Assembly (NCBI GenBank): GCA_963666275.2
Contig: CAXXOA010000001.1
Span: 384,001-448,000 of the forward strand
DNA length: 64,000 nt
Source: Oceanispirochaeta sp.
GTDB taxonomy: Bacteria > Spirochaetota > Spirochaetia > DSM-2461
Direction: 5' to 3'
Positions 51,292 through 62,415 of this stretch are shown piece by piece. The notes beneath the pieces were generated by a model. That model did not search any database. It worked only from the letters and a program-made list of their open reading frames with translations, and had not been told where the DNA came from. Position numbers and translations under genes: made by a program. The stretch's first letter is position 1. Every line of letters begins with the position of its first letter.

Positions 51292-52233
51292 TTAATGAAA
51301 CAATTCCCCGATGCTGTCGCCTGTATGGATCCGTTTGATGGCCTCTGCTATCAGCGGGGCTGCTGAAATAATCTGCAGTCCCGGCAGCTCTTTTTCCGGG
51401 GGAACATCCACTGTGTTGGACACAAGAAGACCCTGAATATCCAGATTCTTAAGCCGCTGGATCGCAGGGCCGCAGAGAACCGGATGAACCGCTCCCACCA
51501 GGATATCCCGGACACCCGCTTTTTTAAGGGTTTCCACCGTTTTGAGAATGGTACCGCCTGTGGATATTTCATCATCGAAAATCAGAACATCCCGGCCTTC
51601 CACTTCGCCCACCACATGACCCTGCTGGACCTCTGTGTCGCTGATCCGTCTTTTATCGATAATCGCCAGGGACAGTCCCGCCAGTTCGGCAAAGTGGGCC
51701 GCCCTTTTGGCTCCCCCCGCGTCAGTGGCTACAGCCACCAGGTTTTCCGTATCGTAATGGCTCTTCACATAGTCCGCCAGAAGGGGAATCGCTGTGAGAT
51801 GATCCACAGGCATGCTGAAGAAGCCGTGTACCTGATCCGAATGGAGGTCCATGGTAAGAACCCTGTCGGCTCCTGATGTCTTGAGCAGATCCGCTATCAG
51901 TCTGGCTGTAATGGATATGCGGGGGGCGTCCTTTTTATCCGACCGGGCGTAGGAGTAGTAGGGGATCACAGCGGTGATTCTGCCGGCCGATGCGCTGCGC
52001 AGGGCATCCAGTGTGATCAGAAGGGTCACAAGATTATGGCTCACCGGCTCTGCCAGGGACTGAAAGACGAACACATCTTTTTCTCTGACACTCTCCAGGA
52101 TCTGAACCGAAAGGTTGTCATTGGAAAACCGGGATATTGCCAGGGGGCTCAGTTCCAGTCCCAGACGGGTACAGACCTGCTCCGCCAGGTCGGGATTGGA
52201 TCCGCAGCAGAAAATCTTCATGGCATTTTTCAT
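51292..52233 (-). CDS. prs: Ribose-phosphate pyrophosphokinase
   Basis: VIPYYSYARSDKK, MDLHSDQ, DAGGAKRA and DDEISTGGT. Confidence 0.93.
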   Translation of the reverse strand: MKNAMKIFCCGSNPDLAEQVCTRLGLELSPLAISRFSNDNLSVQILESVREKDVFVFQSLAEPVSHNLVTLLITLDALRSASAGRITAVIPYYSYARSDKKDAPRISITARLIADLLKTSGADRVLTMDLHSDQVHGFFSMPVDHLTAIPLLADYVKSHYDTENLVAVATDAGGAKRAAHFAELAGLSLAIIDKRRISDTEVQQGHVVGEVEGRDVLIFDDEISTGGTILKTVETLKKAGVRDILVGAVHPVLCGPAIQRLKNLDIQGLLVSNTVDVPPEKELPGLQIISAAPLIAEAIKRIHTGDSIGELFH

Positions 52234-54062
52234 ACGTTTTTCCCCAGTACTTTCAGAGCCAGTTCCACTTTGCCGAAGGGGGCGCTGACCTGGAATCCCT
52301 GTACGTAGGTATCAATGGCTTCACAGATCTCCGTGGCAATCCTGAGTCCCTCGGCTATGCCCTCCTCCCGGGACTGGCAGCGGCTCATCCTTTCCATTAC
52401 CGAGTCGGGAACTTCCACTCCCGGGACTTCGTTCCGCATAAACTCGGCATTTTTAAAGCTCACAAGAGGCCACACCCCGGCGATGACAGGGATCTGGCCG
52501 AAGGAAGAGGCCTTCTCCAGGAAATTCAGGAGAGCCATGGGGTCGAAAACGGGCTGGGTGATGGCAAACTCGGCTCCCGCTTCGATCTTCCTTCTGTAGC
52601 GGTCCAGTTCCAGTTCAGGAGAGACCGCACAGGGATTGGCTCCCACTCCCGTAAAGATCGAAGTGGGGGGGGATATGGGGTTGCCCCCGAAGTCCCGGCC
52701 GTAGTTCATATTCCGGACCACCTGGGTGAGTCCGATGGCATCCACATCAAAGACTCCGGTCACCTCCGGGTAGTCTCCCGACTTGGGAGGATCTCCTGTG
52801 ATGACAAGGAAGTTCTTCAGCCCCGCCGCCACGCTTCCCAGTATATCCGACTGCATTCCCAGAAGGTTCCTGTCCCGGCAGGTGTAGTGAAGAACCGCTT
52901 CGATTCCCGCCTCTTTCTGTATCACCGAAGCGGCGATCATGGGGGAGACCCTGGCACTGGCCCGGGGGCCGTCGGGTATATTGATCGCATCCACGCCGTG
53001 GTAGGCGCAGGTTCTGGCTTTGGCAAGAAAGGCTGAAAGATCGGTGCTCCGGGGAGGGGTAATCTCAACGGATGTGACTTTCACTCCCTGCTTGATCAGG
53101 CAGGCCAGACGGGATTTGTCCTCCTGGGGGACAGGCTTGAAATCCTGGTCTTCCTGCAGGGCCGCTTTGACTTGGATATGCTTTTTGACAACACTGATGG
53201 CTTTGACAGCCCGGGAGGCATCCCGGATATGATCCGGTGTGGTTCCGCAGCATCCGCCTACCGCACGGACTCCCAGTTCCATGAATTTCTTGGCATACTT
53301 GGTAAAATAGTCCGGATTGGAAAGGTAGATCATCCTCCCGTCCAGTTCTTTGGGAAAACCCGCATTGGGCAGAACAATGACCGGTTTTTCCGTGAGCCCC
53401 ATGGCTTCTCTGACCCACTCATACAGATGGGAGGGGCCGGTGCCGCAGTTGAGGCCTATCATCTGAACCGCATCGCTCCTGTTGAGCTTGTCAATGACGA
53501 TCCTCAGACTCTCGCCTCCGGGGGTATAGCCCTCTTCGGTAAGGGTAAAGGAGGCGCACACAGGTTTGCCGCAGGAGGAAGCCGCCCGGGCGGCCACAAG
53601 AAGCTCTGCACTGTGACTGAAGGTTTCAAGAAGAAACATATCCACTCCGCCCTGATTCAAGGCATCCGCCTGTTCTCTGAACACATCAGAGAGTTCTTCT
53701 TTTCTGTCGGGCCTCAGGATCTGACCGGACTTGAGGCAGGGTCCCATGGAACCGGCCACATAGAGCTCCTCTTCCGCGTATTTCCTGGCCAGTCTGGCCG
53801 CCGCAAGATTGATCTCTCTGACCTTGTCCCCCAGACCGTGTTCGGCCAGTTTGATCCGGTTGGCACCAAAGGAGTTTGTTTCAAGAACATCCGCCCCGGC
53901 GTCTCTGTATTCCTGATGGATCTCTCCCACCAGGTCGGGGGAGGTCAGGTTCAGCTCATCGTAGCAGCGGTTCAGAAAAACGCCTTTGCTGTAGAGCATT
54001 GTTCCCATGGCACCGTCAAATACCAGGGGCTGTTCCTTGATTCTCTCGAGTATGGGCTTCAC
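52230..54062 (-). CDS. Bifunctional homocysteine S-methyltransferase / methylenetetrahydrofolate reductase (YitJ-like)
   Basis: FDGAMGT, GLNC and GGCCGT, then MTHFR domain motifs VEITPP, CRDRN, ITGDPP and ITQPVFD. Confidence 0.9.
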   Translation of the reverse strand: MKPILERIKEQPLVFDGAMGTMLYSKGVFLNRCYDELNLTSPDLVGEIHQEYRDAGADVLETNSFGANRIKLAEHGLGDKVREINLAAARLARKYAEEELYVAGSMGPCLKSGQILRPDRKEELSDVFREQADALNQGGVDMFLLETFSHSAELLVAARAASSCGKPVCASFTLTEEGYTPGGESLRIVIDKLNRSDAVQMIGLNCGTGPSHLYEWVREAMGLTEKPVIVLPNAGFPKELDGRMIYLSNPDYFTKYAKKFMELGVRAVGGCCGTTPDHIRDASRAVKAISVVKKHIQVKAALQEDQDFKPVPQEDKSRLACLIKQGVKVTSVEITPPRSTDLSAFLAKARTCAYHGVDAINIPDGPRASARVSPMIAASVIQKEAGIEAVLHYTCRDRNLLGMQSDILGSVAAGLKNFLVITGDPPKSGDYPEVTGVFDVDAIGLTQVVRNMNYGRDFGGNPISPPTSIFTGVGANPCAVSPELELDRYRRKIEAGAEFAITQPVFDPMALLNFLEKASSFGQIPVIAGVWPLVSFKNAEFMRNEVPGVEVPDSVMERMSRCQSREEGIAEGLRIATEICEAIDTYVQGFQVSAPFGKVELALKVLGKNV

Positions 54063-54120
54063 GACTTAAAAACTCCTTCTTCTGTGTTCTTTTTTAAAAT
54101 AGCGGACCTGCTGTTCTGAC

Positions 54121-54279
54121 TCAGTCCAGTGGGTCGAAATTGTCTTTTGTGGTGTAGCAAAGAGGGCAGACCCAGGTATCGGGAAGGTCCTCGAAAGCGG
54201 TCCCCGCAGGGATATCCCCCATGGGGTCTCCCTGGGCCGGATCATAGATGTATCCGCAGTTAATGCAAATATATTTCAT
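54121..54279 (-). CDS. Rubredoxin
   Basis: Below the ORF-track cutoff. Manual translation: [52 protein letters not shown] (two CxxC). AGGAG RBS. Confidence 0.93.
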
Positions 54280-54295
54280 TCAGGCTCTCCTTTTT

Positions 54296-56746
54296 TTATA
54301 CGGCAAAGTACTTTGCCTGGGGATGATGCGCCACCAGAGCCGATGTGGACTGCTCGGGGACCATCTCATAGTTTTCCGTCAGGGTAATGCCGATCCTTTC
54401 GGGTTTCAGCATTTCAAAGACAGGACCGTGGGCTGATATATCCGGGCAGGAGGGGTAACCGAATCCGTACCGGGACCCCTGGTACTGCTGGGTTACATAG
54501 CCGTGTATGCTTTCCGGCTCTGACGAGGCAATGCCCATTTCCACCCGCATCCTCTTGTGCCAGTACTCCGCCAGGGCGTCTGTCACCTCCACGCTGAAGG
54601 CATGGAGCATCAGATAGTCGTGATAGGCATCCGCTTCATAGAGCTCGGCGGTCCGTTTGGAAACCTCGTCGCCGATGGTGACCACAAACAGTCCGGCCAC
54701 ATCCCCCCCCTCTTCGGCGCTCTTGTAATAGTCCGAAAGACAGAGGAAGGGAGCTTCTCCCTGCCGGGGAAAGGGGTAGTCATACTCCTTCCCGTTGTGC
54801 TGCATTACAAGGGTCTCCCCCCGGCTTTCGCAGGCGAAGTAGCCGTAGGCGGCGGCGGGTTTGATCAGTCCCTCATGGAGGAACTGCCGGCGGAACTCTT
54901 CGTACAGGGGTTCCACTTTGGTTTTGATCAGTTCGCTGTACTCTTCCCCGGTCATCTTGCCCCGTCTGTAGCCCCAGCGGCCCCGGAACAGGGCCTGTTT
55001 GTTGATCAGGGAGAGCACTTCCTCCAGGTCTATGTCGGTGACGATTCTGTCTCCCAGAAAAGGGGGATCGGGAACCGGATTATCCCGGAGGATTTCTGCA
55101 TCTCTTCGTCCCGGCTTGACTGTTTCTCCCGTACTTCTGGCTTCCCAGGTGGTGGCTGCCAGTTTTCCCGCTTCAAAATCCCGCACCTTTTTCAGAGCAT
55201 CAAAGGCATCGGAGTTATAGACTACAGGATGGGTGTAGCCGGGAACACAGCTTTCGGCCACAAACTTCTTTGTCAGGGCGGCTCCCCCCAGAAAGATGGG
55301 AACCTTCAATCCCGCTTCCTCGTACTGGCTCATGCTCTCTTTCATGACCATGGCGGATTTTACAAGCAGCCCGCTGAGGCCTATGATATCCACCTCTTTT
55401 TCCCGGGCCTGCTGGATGATGGTTTCCGCAGGGACTTTGATCCCAATATTGTAAACCTTGTAGCCGTTGTTGCTGAGGATAATATCCACAAGGTTTTTTC
55501 CTATGTCATGGACATCGCCCTGAACAGTAGCCAGGAGGATCTTTGTCTGGTTGCCTGATTCGGCCTTTTCCATAAGGGGTTCCAGGTAGCGGACCGAGGC
55601 TTTCATGGTTTCGGCCGACTGGAGAACGAAGGGCAGGAGGATCTCTCCCTTTCCGAAGAGCTCGCCCACATGCCGCATGGCCGGTATGAGCACATCGTTG
55701 ATTATGCCGATGGGGGTGTTCCTCTGAAGGAGCATATCCAGAATGTCTGTCAGATCATCCCGGTTTCCCGCTACGATCTTGTCGTACATCTGGGTTTCCA
55801 GGGGTTTCCATTTTGTGTCTTTTTCATCTTCGTCGCTGATTTTGGCATCGGAAAAGTGATCGATAAACAGCAGAAGGGGAGACTTATCTTCGTTTTTCAC
55901 CCTGTCATAGAGCAGATCCATACAGATCTCTCTGTCCTCCTCGCTGATCGAGGCCAGGGGGAGGATTTTGGCGGCGTCGATGATACAAGAGTCCAGTCCC
56001 GCCTCCAGGGCTTCATGGAGGAATACCGCATTGAGAATCCTACGGGAGGGGGCGGAAAGGCCGAAAGATATATTGCTCAGCCCCAGCATGGTCAGGCAGC
56101 CGGGGAGCTCTTTTTTGATAAGCCGGATGGCATCCATGGTTTGAACCGCCGCATCCCTCAGGTTTTCATCCCCCGCTCCGACCGTAAAGGTGAGGGGATC
56201 AAAAAGGATGTCATGGGGTCTGATACCGAACTCTCCGACCGCAATATCATAGATCCGGCGGGCCACTTCCAGCTTTTTCTCCGCCGTCATGGCCATCCCG
56301 TCTTCGTCTATGGTCAGGGCCACCACGGCGGCACCGTATTTTTTCACAACCTTCAGGACCCGGTAGATGTTCTTTCCCCCGTCCTCCAGGTTCACCGAGT
56401 TGACAATGCACCGGCCCGGATAGAGTTTCAAAGACTCCTCAATCACTTCCGGAGTGGTGGAATCAATCATTAAAGGGGTTTTCAGGGATCCCGCAAAGAG
56501 GGGGACCAGGGTGGTCATGTCCTTCATCTCGTCCCGGCCCGCATAGGCGGTACACAGGTCGATCACATGGGCTCCTGCGGCTTCCTGATCCCGGCCCATG
56601 GTCAGACAGCTGCCGTAGTCGTCGGCCAGGAGGAACTCCCTGAATTTTTTCGAACCGTTGGAGTTGCACCTTTCCCCGATGATTAGGGGCTTTATTTCCT
56701 GAACCAGTTCCACTGATTCATATAGGCTGGCTATGGAAGGTTTCAC
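54296..56746 (-). CDS. metH: B12-dependent methionine synthase, pterin-binding, cobalamin-binding and activation part
   Basis: IIGERCN..GSKKF, GDVHDIGKN, LSGLL and RYGFGYPSCPD, ending HHPQAKYF. Confidence 0.92.
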   Translation of the reverse strand: MKPSIASLYESVELVQEIKPLIIGERCNSNGSKKFREFLLADDYGSCLTMGRDQEAAGAHVIDLCTAYAGRDEMKDMTTLVPLFAGSLKTPLMIDSTTPEVIEESLKLYPGRCIVNSVNLEDGGKNIYRVLKVVKKYGAAVVALTIDEDGMAMTAEKKLEVARRIYDIAVGEFGIRPHDILFDPLTFTVGAGDENLRDAAVQTMDAIRLIKKELPGCLTMLGLSNISFGLSAPSRRILNAVFLHEALEAGLDSCIIDAAKILPLASISEEDREICMDLLYDRVKNEDKSPLLLFIDHFSDAKISDEDEKDTKWKPLETQMYDKIVAGNRDDLTDILDMLLQRNTPIGIINDVLIPAMRHVGELFGKGEILLPFVLQSAETMKASVRYLEPLMEKAESGNQTKILLATVQGDVHDIGKNLVDIILSNNGYKVYNIGIKVPAETIIQQAREKEVDIIGLSGLLVKSAMVMKESMSQYEEAGLKVPIFLGGAALTKKFVAESCVPGYTHPVVYNSDAFDALKKVRDFEAGKLAATTWEARSTGETVKPGRRDAEILRDNPVPDPPFLGDRIVTDIDLEEVLSLINKQALFRGRWGYRRGKMTGEEYSELIKTKVEPLYEEFRRQFLHEGLIKPAAAYGYFACESRGETLVMQHNGKEYDYPFPRQGEAPFLCLSDYYKSAEEGGDVAGLFVVTIGDEVSKRTAELYEADAYHDYLMLHAFSVEVTDALAEYWHKRMRVEMGIASSEPESIHGYVTQQYQGSRYGFGYPSCPDISAHGPVFEMLKPERIGITLTENYEMVPEQSTSALVAHHPQAKYFAV

Positions 56747-57678
56747 TGCTGCACCTCCCTCTGGGCCGGTTCAATTCCCGAAACAGCCTCTTTCAGCGCT
56801 CTAATATGATCCGGAGTGGAGCCGCAGCATCCCCCCACCAGGGAAACGCCCCATTTTTCCACAAAGGTTTTCATTTCTCCCGCAAAGTGTTCGGGGGTCA
56901 TGGGATAGCAGGTCTTCCCGTCTATGATTTCGGGCAGTCCCTGATTGGGAAGGCAGGAAACCCTTCCGCTCCAGTTATGGCTGAGCCAGTGTATGGAGGA
57001 CTGCATATCCTCCGGCCCGGTGGCGCAGTTCAGGCCGAAAGCGAAGACCGGAAAGGGCTCTATGATGGCAGCAGCCGCAGCTATATCCGAGCCGGCCAGC
57101 ATGGTGCCAGTTTTTTCTATGGTTACCGAGATGATCAGGGGGAGCTCTTTTCCCAGTTCCTCCATCACTTCTCCAGCGGCTATGAGAGATGTTTTGAGCT
57201 GCAGTACATCCTGGGCTGTTTCAAGCATCAGCAGGTCTACTCCCGCATTGATGAGGGCGCGGACCTGATCCTTGTAGGCTCTGTTGACTTCATCCACAGT
57301 GATGTGCCCCAGCGAGGGGAGTTTTGTCCCGGGACCGCAGGAGCCGGCGACCCAGCCGTGTCCGGAGAGTTCCACTGCCCTGCGGGCCGCTTCCACACCG
57401 GCCCGGTTGATCTCTTCCACTCTGTCCTCCAGTCCGTATTCGCTGAGAACAATAGAAGAGGCTCCGAAGGTATTGGTTTCGATGATATCGGCTCCCGCAT
57501 CAAGGAACTCCCTGTGCATCTCTGTTATCTTTTCAGGACAACTGATATTCAGGTATTCGTTGCACCCCTCGTTGCCGTCCCACACAGATTCAGGAAGGTC
57601 CATGTTCTGTATGCTTGTTCCGCAGGCTCCATCAAGGATTAACAGCTTTTTCTCTTGTAAATCCATTCTTTCTCCCAT
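56743..57678 (-). CDS. metH: Methionine synthase homocysteine-binding domain (separate gene of a split metH)
   Basis: LDGACGT, ETNTFG, GLNCATGP and GGCCGS. GTGA overlap with the next gene, which has its own GGAGG RBS. Confidence 0.88.
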   Translation of the reverse strand: MGERMDLQEKKLLILDGACGTSIQNMDLPESVWDGNEGCNEYLNISCPEKITEMHREFLDAGADIIETNTFGASSIVLSEYGLEDRVEEINRAGVEAARRAVELSGHGWVAGSCGPGTKLPSLGHITVDEVNRAYKDQVRALINAGVDLLMLETAQDVLQLKTSLIAAGEVMEELGKELPLIISVTIEKTGTMLAGSDIAAAAAIIEPFPVFAFGLNCATGPEDMQSSIHWLSHNWSGRVSCLPNQGLPEIIDGKTCYPMTPEHFAGEMKTFVEKWGVSLVGGCCGSTPDHIRALKEAVSGIEPAQREVQQ

Positions 57679-57845
57679 TTTTTCTCTGTTTTGTCCTATA
57701 CAGGCTTTCCGACCGGTCCGTCGAAATTGTCACCTAGTATAGACACTTTGCATAGGAAAGTCTAAGCCCCCGGAGCCGGGCTTGTCCATTTCTCCCGGAT
57801 CTTTCAGAAGCCGACGGGTTCTGTTTGTGCCCGGGAGGAAAACTC

Positions 57846-57874
57846 TTGACTTTTTGTCCATGTCACCCTACTTT
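57846..57874 (+). promoter_or_regulatory. sigma70-like promoter of the ECF operon
   Basis: TTGACT-17 nt-TACTTT, which puts +1 near 57880, at the base of the hairpin. Confidence 0.55.
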
Positions 57875-57879
57875 TTAAT

Positions 57880-57921
57880 CACCAGTACGCCTGGATCTGT
57901 TAAAGACCGGGACGTGAGGTG
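57880..57921 (+). ncRNA. Cis-regulatory hairpin with two bulged A residues (pan RNA motif-like), copy 1
   Basis: ACG-CCTGG-A-TCT-GTTAA-AGA-CCGGG-A-CGT (57887-57915), extendable by CACC/GGTG over an SD sequence. Confidence 0.7.
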
Positions 57922-57988
57922 TAAACAATGAAAAAGAAAACTGAATATATATCTCATTATCAGTCCCAGCCCCCTTCAGGGAGGGTCT

Positions 57989-59725
57989 ATGGACAGCTCT
58001 GAATCCTTTGTCCGGTTTAAACGGGTGGGATTCTCCTATCCCGGAAATCCGGATGAGACCCTTAAAGAGGTAAACTTCTCTATTGCCAGAGGAAGCAGAA
58101 CCCTTATCCTGGGGAGTAACGGTTCCGGGAAAAGTACCCTTGTCCGGCTCATCACGGGGCTTCTGACTCCCCGGGCCGGTGAGGTCCTGACCTCCGGGCT
58201 GAATACAGCGGCAGAAGAGAACCGCAGAACCATCCGGGAAAGGGCGGGGCTGCTGTTTCAGAATCCCTCCTCCCAGATCGTTGCCACTGTGGTCCGGGAA
58301 GACGCGGCTTTCGGTCCCGAAAACCTGGGACTGGCCAGTCAGGAGATCCGGGAGAGGGTCCGGAACGCTCTGGAGAGAACAGGTCTTTCCCCCCTCTCCC
58401 GCAGAGCCACCCATGATCTTTCGGCGGGGCAGCAGCAGAGACTCTCTCTGGCCGGGGTCCTGGCGCTGGGTTCGGGCTGTCTTATCCTGGACGAAGCGGC
58501 TTCCATGCTGAATCCCTCGGCCCGCAGAGATATGGATCTGCTTCTGGATGACCTTTACAGCCGGGGATACACGATCATTCAGGTCTCCCATTTTATGGAA
58601 CAGATCCTGGAAGCCGACCATATCCTGATCCTCAACAGGGGCGAACTGGTCTTCGACGGTAATAAAGAGGAGCTTCTGGAACAGGCGGATCATCTTGCCG
58701 GATGGTCGCTGAAACTGCCGGAAGTGGTCACCCTGTCCAGGAGCCTTCAGCTCCCCCTCTGTCTGGATGAACAGACCCTTAGCTCTCGTATAAAAGAGAA
58801 ATTTCCTGAAAACCCGGGTTCCGGGAATAGTCCTTTCAGCGGATATGAATCTTCCGCCCCGGACCATGAGGCTCCCCTCCTTGTTCTCAATAGAGTGAAC
58901 TTTGATTATAACAGCCGCAGACCGAATCCTGTTCCCGCTGTGAGAAATCTGGATTTTTCCTTTTTCCGGGGGGAAACGGCCGTGTTTATGGGGACTACAG
59001 GCTCGGGAAAGTCTACGATCCTTCAGATTCTGAACTCCCTGCTTCTGCCTCAGGAGGGACGTGTCTCCCTGCTGGGTGAGAATCCTCTGGACAGGAAATG
59101 CGATCTTACAGGGCTGCGCCGCCGGATAGGACTGGTTATGCAGCAGCCTGAAAAACAGCTTTTTGCCCCCCTGACGGGGGATGATATCGCCTATGGACCC
59201 AAACTGCAGGGGTTGAAGGGCAGGGAATTGGCTCTCCGGGTGAAAGAAGCCATGGAGCTTATGGAACTTTCCTATAAAACCTTCCGGGACAAACCTGTGA
59301 GGGCTTTGAGCGGGGGGCAGAAGCGCAAGGTCGCCCTGGCGGGCATTCTGGCAATGAAACCGGAAATCCTCCTTCTGGATGAACCCACCGCCGGACTGGA
59401 TCCGCTCTCCCGGGATCATCTGGAAAGGCTTATGCTCAGCCTCAGGGAAGAGGGGATCAGTCTGATCTTTTCAACCCATGACGTGGAGCAGGCCGTCCGC
59501 CTGGGATCCCGCCTTATCGTTATGGATCAGGGGGAGAAAGCCTTCGACGGAAATCCTCTGGATTTTTTTCTCCGCCATGATCCGGCCCTCTACGGCCTGG
59601 AATCTCCTCTGGCTTTCAGAATCTGGCAGAATGCGGGAAAAGGGGGCCGGGTTCCTCTCCTGCCGGAAGAGCTGGTTACCCGGCTGCAGGCGGAAATCCC
59701 CGCAGGGAAGGGGAGTGGCCTATGA
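57989..59725 (+). CDS. ECF transporter ATPase with two fused ABC domains (EcfA-EcfA')
   Basis: GSNGSGKST / FQNPSSQ / LSAGQQQR and GTTGSGKST / LSGGQKRK / LDEPTAGLD. Confidence 0.92.
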   Translation: MDSSESFVRFKRVGFSYPGNPDETLKEVNFSIARGSRTLILGSNGSGKSTLVRLITGLLTPRAGEVLTSGLNTAAEENRRTIRERAGLLFQNPSSQIVATVVREDAAFGPENLGLASQEIRERVRNALERTGLSPLSRRATHDLSAGQQQRLSLAGVLALGSGCLILDEAASMLNPSARRDMDLLLDDLYSRGYTIIQVSHFMEQILEADHILILNRGELVFDGNKEELLEQADHLAGWSLKLPEVVTLSRSLQLPLCLDEQTLSSRIKEKFPENPGSGNSPFSGYESSAPDHEAPLLVLNRVNFDYNSRRPNPVPAVRNLDFSFFRGETAVFMGTTGSGKSTILQILNSLLLPQEGRVSLLGENPLDRKCDLTGLRRRIGLVMQQPEKQLFAPLTGDDIAYGPKLQGLKGRELALRVKEAMELMELSYKTFRDKPVRALSGGQKRKVALAGILAMKPEILLLDEPTAGLDPLSRDHLERLMLSLREEGISLIFSTHDVEQAVRLGSRLIVMDQGEKAFDGNPLDFFLRHDPALYGLESPLAFRIWQNAGKGGRVPLLPEELVTRLQAEIPAGKGSGL

Positions 59726-60591
59726 GAAACTTTGATTTTTCAGGGACCATGGCCCTGGGGCAGTATGAACCGGGAGACTCGTACCTTCACAGACTGGTTC
59801 CGGGGGTCAAACTCCTTTCGGCGTTTCTCCTTGTCAGCGTGGTTCTCTTCTCTCCGCTGTACCCTGTACTGCCCCTTCTTTTCCTTTTCTTTGCGGTTCT
59901 TGCCCGGGCGGCGGATCTTAAAATCCGGTATCTTATGAAAGGAGTGAAACCTGTCCTCCCTTTCCTGATTCTCATCGGCATCATTCAGGTCTTTTTTATC
60001 TCCCGGGATCCTCTGGGGGAGCCGCTGTTTGTCTACCGGTTTCTCAGGATCTATCCTGTGGATCTGTATGAAACGGCTCAGCTTTTTGCCCGGTTTTTCT
60101 GCCTGGTCCTTCTGCTGTCCCTGTTTAATGCGGTAACGCCTCTGACCGAGATCAGTCACGGTACCGAGTTCCTTCTCCGCCCTCTGGGAAAGAAATCCGG
60201 GGCGGCCCACGACATGTCTCTGATCGTGACCATTACCTTCCGTTTCATTCCCATCCTGGCCCAGGAGGCGGAAAGCATTACCAAAGCCCAGGCGGCCAGA
60301 GGAGGAGAGTTCGGAACCTGGAAAACTGGATTTCTGAGAAAGGTCAGGCTCTATGTGCCCCTGATCGTGCCGCTTTTTATTGCCGCCCTGGACAGGGCGG
60401 AGATTCTTGTGGAGGCCATGGAGTCCCGCTGCTACACACCGGGGCGCCACAGGACCAGGCTGGACGAGTATCACTGGCAGAGACGGGATACCCTGGCTAT
60501 TACCGGAGTGGGAGGACTCTTTCTCATCCTTCTGTTACTGCGTCTGTTTCAGTTCCCTTTACCCGGGCTGTCCCCTTTCTTTTTGCAATAG
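59722..60591 (+). CDS. ecfT: ECF transporter transmembrane component
   Basis: GQYEPGDSYLHRL, RFIPIL, AQAARG and AMESRCY motifs. Confidence 0.92.
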   Translation: MRNFDFSGTMALGQYEPGDSYLHRLVPGVKLLSAFLLVSVVLFSPLYPVLPLLFLFFAVLARAADLKIRYLMKGVKPVLPFLILIGIIQVFFISRDPLGEPLFVYRFLRIYPVDLYETAQLFARFFCLVLLLSLFNAVTPLTEISHGTEFLLRPLGKKSGAAHDMSLIVTITFRFIPILAQEAESITKAQAARGGEFGTWKTGFLRKVRLYVPLIVPLFIAALDRAEILVEAMESRCYTPGRHRTRLDEYHWQRRDTLAITGVGGLFLILLLLRLFQFPLPGLSPFFLQ

Positions 60592-60664
60592 CCAGGGAGA
60601 GGGATCATATTTTAGGTTGTATAAGGTGTTTTTCCCCGGGAGAATCCCCTTTTGAATAATGGTA

Positions 60665-60692
60665 ACCCCTGGATCCGGAAGGACCGGGAGGT
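60665..60692 (+). ncRNA. Cis-regulatory hairpin with two bulged A residues (pan RNA motif-like), copy 2
   Basis: ACC-CCTGG-A-TCC-GGAA-GGA-CCGGG-A-GGT, immediately before the SD AAAGGAG of the S-component gene. Confidence 0.7.
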
Positions 60693-60706
60693 GAAAGGAG
60701 TTGTGT

Positions 60707-61282
60707 ATGAGTGATTCAAGCCGTACAAAAAAAATTGTTATAGCCGGAGTTATGGCGGCTATATCTGTCGTCCTGGGTGCCACCAGACTGGGGTTTATCC
60801 CCTGGCTGTCCGGTGCCTCTCTGACTGTCATGCATGTGCCAGTTATTATCGGCGCCATCCTGGAGGGTCCCGTGGTCGGTATGGTCATAGGATTTATCTT
60901 CGGCCTCTTCAGTCTGATCCAGGCCGCCGTGTCGCCCACCGGACCGGTGGATGTGTTCTTTACCAATCCTCTGGTATCGATCCTTCCCAGGATCCTGATC
61001 GGCGCCACAACATGGCTTGTCTATGGTGCTTTCCGTGACAGATGGCTCCCCGTGGCTGTGATCCTTTCCTCCGTGGTGGGAAGCCTGACAAACACTGTGC
61101 TTGTTCTGGGCGCTCTGGGCGTGGCGGGAGCTCTCCCCTGGCAGCTTGTGGGAACAATCACTGTTATCAACGGCCTTCCCGAAGCAGGGGCGGCTGCCCT
61201 GATTTCCATTGCGGTGATCACCTCATGGAAGTCCATCAGTCTGAACCGAAAATCCAAACTTGACGATCTGGAAGAGAAATAA
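60707..61282 (+). CDS. panT: ECF S-component, PanT (pantothenate) family
   Basis: LGFIP, TVMHVPVIIGAILEGP, FTNPLVSILPRILIG and GSLTNTVLVL. Directly upstream of coaX. Confidence 0.82.
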   Translation: MSDSSRTKKIVIAGVMAAISVVLGATRLGFIPWLSGASLTVMHVPVIIGAILEGPVVGMVIGFIFGLFSLIQAAVSPTGPVDVFFTNPLVSILPRILIGATTWLVYGAFRDRWLPVAVILSSVVGSLTNTVLVLGALGVAGALPWQLVGTITVINGLPEAGAAALISIAVITSWKSISLNRKSKLDDLEEK

Positions 61283-62064
61283 TGCTGCTGGCTGTAGATA
61301 TAGGAAACACGAATATTGTGCTGGGTATCCATAACGGGGAAACCTGGCTTAACCATTGGAGAATCTGTACGGATCCCGCCAAAATGCCCGATGAATACGG
61401 GGTTCTTGTGCGGGATCTTCTCAGGGAAGAGGGCATCCACCGCCGGGAAGTTTCCCAGTCCGTGATAAGCAGCGTGGTGCCCGGCCTGACCGCCAAAATC
61501 CGGGATATGATTGAAAAACTGTTTTCTTTCACCCCTCTTATCGTGGGGCCCGGGGTCAAAACAGGGCTGAAGATCCTGATTGAAAATCCTGCCGAGCTGG
61601 GAACGGACATTGTGTGCAATGCCGTGGCCGCCTACAACAGAATACAGGGGAATCTGATTGTTGTGGACTTCGGTACGGCCCTGACCTTCACAGCCGTGAG
61701 AGAACCCGGAGAGATCCTGGGGGTTTCCATTGCTCCGGGCCTTCAGGCCGCAGCGGAAGCCCTGTCGGAGCATACGGCTCAGCTGCCTCAGGTCTGGCTG
61801 GAACCTCCGCAGAATGCCATCGGGAAGAATACGATCAAATCGGTTCAGTCGGGAGTTGTCTTCGGCTACACCGGCCTTGTGGAATCCCTGATCGACAGGA
61901 TGAAAAAAGAGCTGGGCGGGGATGTTTCGGTTATCGGTACTGGCGGCCGCTCCGGGGTCATCGCCCCCTTAACAGACCGGTTTACCATGATAGAACCCTG
62001 GCTGATCCTGGAAGGTCTGCGCCTGATCGGCACAAGAAACAGGAAATTTTTTCAGGAACAATAA
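61282..62064 (+). CDS. coaX: Type III pantothenate kinase
   Basis: LAVDIGNTN, SSVVP, ELGTD, VVDFGTA, IAPG and TGG. Confidence 0.93.
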   Translation: MLLAVDIGNTNIVLGIHNGETWLNHWRICTDPAKMPDEYGVLVRDLLREEGIHRREVSQSVISSVVPGLTAKIRDMIEKLFSFTPLIVGPGVKTGLKILIENPAELGTDIVCNAVAAYNRIQGNLIVVDFGTALTFTAVREPGEILGVSIAPGLQAAAEALSEHTAQLPQVWLEPPQNAIGKNTIKSVQSGVVFGYTGLVESLIDRMKKELGGDVSVIGTGGRSGVIAPLTDRFTMIEPWLILEGLRLIGTRNRKFFQEQ

Positions 62065-62127
62065 TTTTTTTTCCCGGTGTTTTATACCATACTTTACTAA
62101 AGCAGATACTGTTTTAAAGGAGTTTAT

Positions 62128-62376
62128 ATGGAATATCAGATCGTAGCGATAAAGATCGGACACCGGGAAGACAAGGCCACGGCGGTGCAGGATGTGCTGA
62201 CAAAATTCGGATGCAATATCAAAGTCCGCCTGGGCCTTCATGATCTGCCCGAAGGAGCCTGTTCTCCCTCGGGCCTGATTCTCCTTCAGGTTTCGGCAGA
62301 GGAGAAAGAGCTGAAGGTCTTTCTGGATCAGCTGAACAGCATGGAAGAAGTGACGGCCCGGTCTCTGACTATCTGA
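62128..62376 (+). CDS. Small ACT/ferredoxin-like-fold protein (TM1266-like)
   Basis: VQDVLTKFGCNIKVRLGLH motif and AAGGAG RBS. Confidence 0.7.
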   Translation: MEYQIVAIKIGHREDKATAVQDVLTKFGCNIKVRLGLHDLPEGACSPSGLILLQVSAEEKELKVFLDQLNSMEEVTARSLTI

Positions 62377-62415
62377 GTTTTAAAAACTCGCATTATAGCT
62401 GTGAATCTTCAGATC

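Follow-up and report, generated by a model that had tools for sequence, protein, structure and literature searches.

Single pan-motif hairpins as likely translational operators of an ECF transporter-coaX operon for probable pantetheine salvage in a spirochaete

A stretch of 64,000 nucleotides (nt) from Oceanispirochaeta sp. (contig CAXXOA010000001.1, positions 384,001 to 448,000 of the forward strand; hereafter the window, whose numbering is used throughout unless another contig is named) carries an ecfAA'-ecfT-panT-coaX operon, that is, the genes of an energy-coupling factor (ECF) transporter followed by that of a type III kinase. Two hairpins with the same core lie in this operon, HP1 (57887..57915, + strand) ahead of the first gene and HP2 (60665..60692, +) between ecfT and panT. 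The locus thereby raises the question of what these hairpins are, at which step of expression they act, and which compound the operon brings into the cell. On balance, we favour reading both as single-hairpin pan RNAs that serve as translational operators of a pantetheine-salvage operon. The host is placed in or near the genus Oceanispirochaeta, judging from its nearest named PanT relative, which belongs to a metagenome-assembled genome (MAG) of that genus (88%), in agreement with the probable spirochaete named by an initial annotation made from the letters alone.

The coordinates and arms that this annotation gave for the two hairpins agree exactly with the sequence, as do the identical cores and both bulged adenines, and both elements fold as proposed (z = -3.35 for the HP1 region and -1.84 for the HP2 region). 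A family-like descriptor that requires every stem to pair finds two matches in 10.5 Mb (both strands of this genome), namely HP1 and HP2, where chance would give 0.03 genome-wide and 3.5e-7 per 115-nt spacer, both figures being rough estimates that assume independence. Once the descriptor is relaxed so as to leave the sequence free, 30 matches of mixed sequence appear, and the significance of the hairpins thus depends on sequence and structure together. Since only two such hairpins exist in the genome, a repetitive REP element, against which the initial annotation had warned, is excluded; the inspected matches of a search with model R1 likewise include no further intergenic copy in this genome. 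The letters themselves appear sound, as the contigs of two runs of the same sample, from which the window itself may derive, contain neither a differing letter nor an indel over 57700-62400.

When compared with Rfam, the 64-kb window yields no match at gathering threshold, and the top matches by E-value are both to pan, RF01749, as had been suggested, at 57836-57919 (32.8 bits, HP1) and 60632-60696 (21 bits, HP2). Both scores lie below the cut-off of 36.2 bits, which speaks against the assignment. RF01749 comprises two hairpins, and HP1 and HP2 each match the 3' hairpin only, so that single copies are missed; at gathering level the model finds no pan in 14 PanT loci, though model R1 finds hairpins in several of them. 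The HP1 orthologue of one relative (G059) reaches 39.9 bits, HP1 is almost identical to the 3' hairpin of the pan consensus, and the two bulged A that interrupt the stem are invariant in sets of 19 and 27 rows. Taken with the RF01749 matches, this supports the pan identity of both hairpins. In the available part of its description (PMC2864571; this and the other papers cited here are used in part), the pan motif is a stem carrying a pair of bulged A, usually in tandem copies, before panB/panC/panD operons in Chloroflexi, Firmicutes and delta-Proteobacteria, the tandem form being suggestive of a site for a dimeric protein. At HP1 and HP2 the tandem arrangement is absent, each site having a single hairpin. 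The 2010 alignment in the same paper contains rows almost identical to HP1 as well as three rows without the first hairpin; the tandem form is therefore not obligatory, and single hairpins are not the departure from it that they had first seemed.

The operon was detected in 19 of 61 genomes, this one included, and HP1 is present in all 19 leaders compared (18 besides the one described here, two of them from G027), with another in G054. Its stem is paired in 99% of the alignment cells and six of its 11 pairs show changes on both sides, a value reached by none of 500 shuffles and set against 22-49% of cells in slid controls, in a set of sequences that are kin; two of the six pairs lie in the core and one stems from HP2 alone. 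The covariation noticed between the two hairpins is thus borne out among orthologues. When 96 further PanT loci, from spirochaetes and Chloroflexota, are scanned (many metagenome loci among them being short, and a few repeating genomes already counted), model R1 adds 33 matches with E < 0.01, all of them about 2.6-3.1 kb upstream of panT, i.e., at the position of the ecfA leader. Upstream of HP1, a predicted sigma-70 promoter (TTGACT-17-TACTTT, 57846..57874, +) fits a start near 57881, as previously predicted, but stays below the threshold of the promoter scan; its TTGA(C) -35 box recurs at the same distance in orthologous leaders. The first three leader bases (57881-57883, +) can extend the pairing of the folded hairpin over the Shine-Dalgarno (SD) sequence that follows HP1, as had been proposed, but over part of it only.

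In 18 of the 19 leaders the hairpin adjoins an SD sequence. Here, too, the hairpins abut ribosome-binding sites as first described, since the SD-like GAGGTG (57916..57921, +) directly follows HP1 and GAAAGGAG (60693..60700, +), the SD region of panT, directly follows HP2; the SD after HP1, however, serves not ecfA but an upstream open reading frame (uORF). It feeds the ATG at 57928, start of a 24-codon uORF (57928..58002, +) that is out of frame with ecfAA' and stops 14 nt inside it. The latter gene (57989..59725, +) encodes a fused double ECF ATPase of 578 amino acids (aa), over cut-off for TIGR04520 and TIGR04521. A uORF of 21-28 codons ending 4-14 nt inside ecfA is found in 12 of the 19 leaders, and the G054 leader has a 41-codon version; in six of the 19 the SD drives ecfA directly, and one has neither layout. 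With the uORF start fixed by SD spacing, its frame is open in 12/12 leaders and the other two frames in 3/12 and 6/12. The shuffle probabilities are 0.19-0.51 each, with a product of 1e-6 over kin that are not independent. In 10 of the 12 leaders the start-to-start distances from uORF to ecfA are 58, 61, 64, 67 or 79, and are thus equal modulo three. Most uORF leaders are predicted to form a hairpin over the ecfA SD (z <= -1.9 in 5/12), and the minimum-free-energy fold of this genome has a weak one at 57963..57994 (+), which pairs the ecfAA' SD (57979-57984) and start codon. This layout suggests that the uORF is a probable translational-coupling relay to ecfAA'. Two points weigh against it, namely that the ecfA codons themselves partly supply the uORF stop and that the anti-SD hairpin of this genome is no better than shuffles (z about 0). 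The uORF was also considered as an assembly frameshift, which was rejected given the agreement of the two runs' contigs and the occurrence of the layout in relatives, and as a source of a functional peptide, for which no family match and no conservation of the peptide sequence were found.

Downstream of ecfAA', the gene of the ECF T component, ecfT (59722..60591, +; PF02361), overlaps its stop by 4 nt, and the gap from there to panT measures 115 nt here, 118 nt in G004 and -26 to 44 nt in 17 others. HP2 occupies this gap in the present genome only, being absent from the 18 other orthologous spacers; a DNA search gave nothing in 10 genomes of the genus, and no HP2-like hairpin stands at the panT start in the 96 further PanT loci. 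The expected conservation before orthologous genes is therefore true of HP1 in every ecfA leader compared and of HP2 in no other panT spacer, and the suggestion that single hairpins 2.8 kb apart replace the tandem, found in 1/19 orthologous spacers and 0/96 further loci, loses its support as a conserved long-range pair. This distribution, together with an Rfam score of only 21 bits and a genome rich in CC(C/T)GG words, would suit an arrangement in which HP1 is the sole functional pan element and HP2 a look-alike without function, arisen by drift or left over, or else a stem that only stabilises a processed panT-coaX transcript; we think this unlikely, as a chance hairpin in that spacer is expected at 3.5e-7, HP2 lies 3 nt upstream of the panT SD, and its one departure from the consensus is a compensated pair. 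This basal pair, C-G in HP2 and G-C in 18/18 HP1 rows, also occurs naturally elsewhere, with 13 of 17 GTDB matches to the C-G variant directly before panB (12) or panD (1). Several observations count against a function of HP2: it has no orthologue and hence no support from conservation, the equally long spacer of G004 (the nearest relative) lacks it, so that a long spacer does not require it, and model R1 gives it 23.3 bits, within the 21-26 bits of chance-level matches inside genes. The promoter scan lists no internal promoter before HP2. The reading of HP2 that fits these comparisons best is a gain specific to this lineage, and we would expect it, with fair confidence, to be functional.

In the mechanism proposed here, plentiful coenzyme A (CoA) or 4'-phosphopantetheine would cause a protein to bind or stabilise the bulged-A hairpin, and ribosome loading at the adjacent SD would be blocked. 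Blockade at HP1 would stop translation of the uORF, which would otherwise deliver ribosomes to, and unfold, the ecfAA' start, whereas ecfT translation would follow that of ecfAA' through the overlap. In most relatives panT comes close behind ecfT; the 115-nt spacer would break this link here, and the gain of HP2 in this lineage would bring panT-coaX under direct control. The direction, repression when CoA is plentiful, is inferred, and we consider it likely that the hairpins act at the level of translation.

Outside this operon, an HP1 pattern scan of GTDB gave at least 116 matches, with flanks for 80 of the loci listed. Among these listed matches, the first gene encodes PanB/C/D/E or DUF2520 (which we take to be PanG) in 71/80, an ECF ATPase in 3/80, and BioY or a sodium symporter in 2/80; it is unrelated in 4/80, so that 76/80 stand before pan synthesis or transport genes. 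HP1 and HP2 do not precede PanB/C/D genes but transporter and kinase genes. Examples of the transport context come from a Clostridia MAG, where the hairpin precedes bioY-panT-coaX, and from an Acidaminococcaceae MAG, where it precedes a sodium:solute symporter (L083, L092); two Treponema-type genomes encode a fusion of EcfA, EcfA' and EcfT, one protein of 891-912 aa, immediately after the pan hairpin (L071, L112). In Nitrospina, Acidobacteria, delta-proteobacterial and Myxococcota loci (among them L064, L066, L079, L080, L094, L107, L230, L232, L233 and L237) the hairpin covers the final codons of a deoxynucleoside-kinase gene that precedes panB/panC, as seen in 10/10 loci tested with Pfam; counting any overlapping ORF, the RNA element lies within coding sequence in 31/97 loci.

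A second kinase gene of this genome, coaX2, is preceded by two pan-like hairpins in tandem (C1:1611376-1611461), the second of which covers its SD and start codon. This leader is kept in 11 orthologues, with 98% of cells paired and three pairs changed on both sides, and the second bulge of its 3' hairpin varies (A, U, G). SNZ/SNO (pdxST-like) genes come after coaX2, and leader plus kinase look like a remnant of a panG-panB-panC-coaC-coaB-coaX-panD operon. No pan-like hairpin was found before coaD or coaE of this genome. The coaX2-type core variant occurs in 23 of the 61 genomes (with 24 matches, where the reversed control gave two), for the most part ahead of panG/panB operons, and in 17 of the 24 matches the start codon follows 1-3 nt after the hairpin, so that the stem covers the ribosome-binding site and translational control is favoured. 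This spirochaete variant, with an ACUUG/CAGGU core, is scored poorly by Rfam (L452-L475), and several of these loci have short ORFs, some of them clearly eroded panG (L455), between hairpin and panB. Several spirochaete-class genomes have panB without a match for CoaX or CoaB (G037, G039, G049, G051, G057, G058), and the panB leaders seen in genomes of this kind have no pan hairpin (L412-L415, L417, L418). An exclusive tie of pan to one CoaX clade was considered and dropped, because the second variant precedes spirochaete panG/panB operons with the other clade.

The position of the hairpins also bears on transcriptional or mRNA-stability control, in which a binder or stalled uORF translation would trigger Rho-type polarity or decay. 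In other phyla, many of the hairpins are separated from the next long ORF by 40-240 nt, for which attenuation or stability control fits equally well, and this counts against control of translation; moreover, an untranslated uORF would expose RNA, and HP2 might shield the 5' end of a processed transcript. However, no terminator-like site was found in the + strand from HP1 to ecfA, and the hairpin covers the ribosome-binding site in the spirochaete variant. We thus judge this form of control to be quite improbable, and translational action remains the preferred reading.

As to what senses the metabolite, the near-invariant pan core across phyla, the lack of a regulator gene common to pan loci (none in 134 loci compared with this genome, some of which are chance matches), and a hairpin that works singly, with a P0 able to pair over the SD, might suggest a minimal riboswitch that binds CoA, dephospho-CoA or phosphopantetheine directly. 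Yet the hairpin is a simple 29-nt stem without a junction, no alternative fold was found, a second core sequence exists in spirochaetes, and the tandem form was read as a dimeric-protein site in the 2010 paper; a riboswitch is accordingly very unlikely in our view, and binding by a protein seems the better bet, if by no means a safe one. The initial annotation had put forward two such proteins. The first, an 82-aa ACT-like protein of the CPF_0552 family (window 62128-62376; a second over-cut-off copy at C2:2248354 of this genome), lies near the operon in only 2/18 relatives' loci, and neither the pan-bearing relatives G006, G009, G010, G014, G047, G054 and G059 nor B. subtilis, which has a pan RNA of its own, gave an over-cut-off match to it, so that it does not hold up as the binder; a search for a PDB relative of it found none. 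The second, CoaX, was found in 48 of 50 genomes that carry pan, chiefly from other phyla (one match being a fragment), but it is widespread in any case, with 48 of the 61 relatives having it. That it was not found in the remaining two of the 50, in G022 (81% complete) and in two Enterococcus genomes with a pan hairpin weighs against it; one of the Enterococcus hairpins precedes panG-panB and the other is stranded between transposase-like ORFs. The latter kind is seen in Enterococcus avium, where a tandem pan leader lies between two such ORFs and the downstream gene is broken (L407:1400-1640). A basic-residue signature in CoaX was confounded with clade and was not used. To our knowledge, type III kinases are not feedback-inhibited by CoA. 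PanB/C/D and CoaB/C, none of which was found here, cannot serve as binders in this genome, leaving CoaX, CoaD, CoaE or an unlinked protein as candidates. CoaX as the pan-RNA binder is possible but doubtful. Still more speculative is the wider picture in which CoaX represses its own operon at several hairpins, through the uORF relay and the newly gained site, while its Arg-less form would be a pantetheine kinase paired with an ECF pantetheine transporter. A literature search, whose coverage left out most subscription papers, returned no report of pan RNAs in spirochaetes and none that names a binder of the motif or its ligand.

The third question, the cargo, is addressed by the gene inventory. 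In this genome, 97% complete, PanB, PanC, PanD, CoaB and CoaC were not found; the CoaB and CoaC of relatives give no tblastn match in it, and the one flavoprotein match is UbiX. CoaA has no over-cut-off match there, while the type II kinase search matched in none of the controls; CoaD and CoaE are present. The CoaB family search was positive in 14/14 controls and 31/61 relatives but in only 3/19 operon-bearing genomes, the same three that have PanB; among other PanT-locus genomes, whose completeness is not given, CoaB occurs in 9/38. The S component (60707..61282, +; 191 aa, PF12822) keeps the pocket Arg and Asn and has Phe for Trp when compared with its nearest structures, 4RFS and 6ZG3, which are PanT (PMC7755397). 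CoaX1 (61282..62064, +) is over cut-off for PF03309, NF009855 and TIGR00671. The Arg of its PAN motif hGhDR, which is reported to contact pantothenate (PMC8721197) and is present in all five PDB alignments shown, is replaced by Ile110 (codon 61609-61611) in CoaX1 and by Leu in CoaX2. Among 56 loci, 41 of which have a CoaX covering this site, the operon CoaX has Ile or Leu in 36/36 cases from CoaB-less genomes; in CoaB-bearing genomes it has Arg in 2/5 and Ile in 3/5, and those three keep an Arg-bearing CoaX in a synthesis operon. Arg is kept in 20/20 CoaX from the clade found in spirochaete synthesis operons and in 21/22 from other pan-bearing genomes. CoaX1 and CoaX2 belong to separate clades, which implies that Arg was lost at least twice here, in a quick, midpoint-rooted tree that lacks four rows including this genome's coaX2. 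Arg-less members of the CoaX1 clade also turned up outside the ECF operon (L372, L374, L376, L361), three times in a CoaB-bearing genome and once in a CoaB-less one.

The pantothenate uptake originally assumed thus does not fit a genome in which CoaB and CoaC are not found and CoaX lacks the pantothenate-binding Arg, and for the same reasons PanT probably carries pantetheine instead; the host seems incapable of using vitamin B5 (pantothenate) directly. A CoaBC-less pathway variant has been described, in which known B5 transporters occur in only 12% of such genomes (PMC6593275), and pantetheine use has been proposed for Mycoplasma PanK-III with Arg to Leu/Ile, the assay having failed for solubility (PMC8721197). 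Two facts pull the other way: many of the compared genomes are incomplete MAGs, and the type III kinases tested do not use pantetheine, as far as the available parts of PMC11487621, PMC12570885 and PMC8721197 report. Pantothenate would remain the cargo if CoaB and CoaC existed in a form that escaped recognition or had not been assembled, as the PanT family match and the pantothenate selectivity of tested type III kinases might suggest; given the CoaB counts, the empty tblastn searches and the lost Arg, we regard this as improbable. Judging from the substitution, CoaX1 is a probable pantetheine kinase, and a salvage pair of pantetheine kinase and transporter is what we believe, with reasonable confidence, the operon to encode.

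On the other side of the operon, the divergent genes at 52230-57678 (- strand) include a split methionine synthase, made of a 311-aa N-terminal methyltransferase gene and an 816-aa gene, and a 610-aa fused methyltransferase/reductase-like gene; the first of these genes adjoins the ECF operon in 12 relatives' loci.

When considered beside known systems, PyrR and TRAP of Bacillus are ligand-responsive proteins that read RNA sites repeated at several places in a vitamin or nucleotide regulon, transporter genes included; the likeness is one of working principle only, as there is no sequence relation and no terminator or antiterminator was seen here. In uof-fur, a small RNA (sRNA) as regulator acts on a short upstream ORF that overlaps the start of the main gene, and the present locus would work alike through an overlapping uORF, with a cis hairpin instead of the sRNA and an unconserved peptide. 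The pan RNA motif itself (RF01749) shares the two-bulged-A stem, the CoA-precursor gene context and the adjoining SD, whereas here it stands in Spirochaetota, before transporter and kinase genes instead of panB/C/D, in a genome without detected pan synthesis or CoaBC, and with a uORF relay and an extra intercistronic copy. The pantetheine-shunt (Apn) variant (PMC6593275) is alike in having a kinase, CoaD and CoaE without CoaBC, and Mycoplasma PanK-III (PMC8721197) in the same PAN-motif substitution; in contrast to both, a dedicated ECF module and pan RNA accompany the variant kinase here. The ECF-PanT of Lactobacillus (4RFS, 6ZG3; PMC7755397) has the same S-component family with pocket Arg and Asn, whereas here EcfAA'T is co-encoded, the pocket Trp is Phe and the predicted cargo differs.

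The finding is thus an established RNA motif in a phylum and gene setting that are new for it, joined by a uORF relay, by a second copy that this lineage alone has gained and, probably, by pantetheine as the salvaged cargo. While the pan motif has been on record since 2010, this genome has four pan-type hairpins with no PanB/C/D, CoaB, CoaC or CoaA detected, which narrows the search for the binder to CoaX, CoaD, CoaE or an unlinked factor. The operon bears on two open points, the phosphorylation of pantetheine by Arg-less type III kinases and the import of pantetheine in CoaBC-less bacteria, and HP2 would exemplify how one lineage acquires an RNA operator within an operon.

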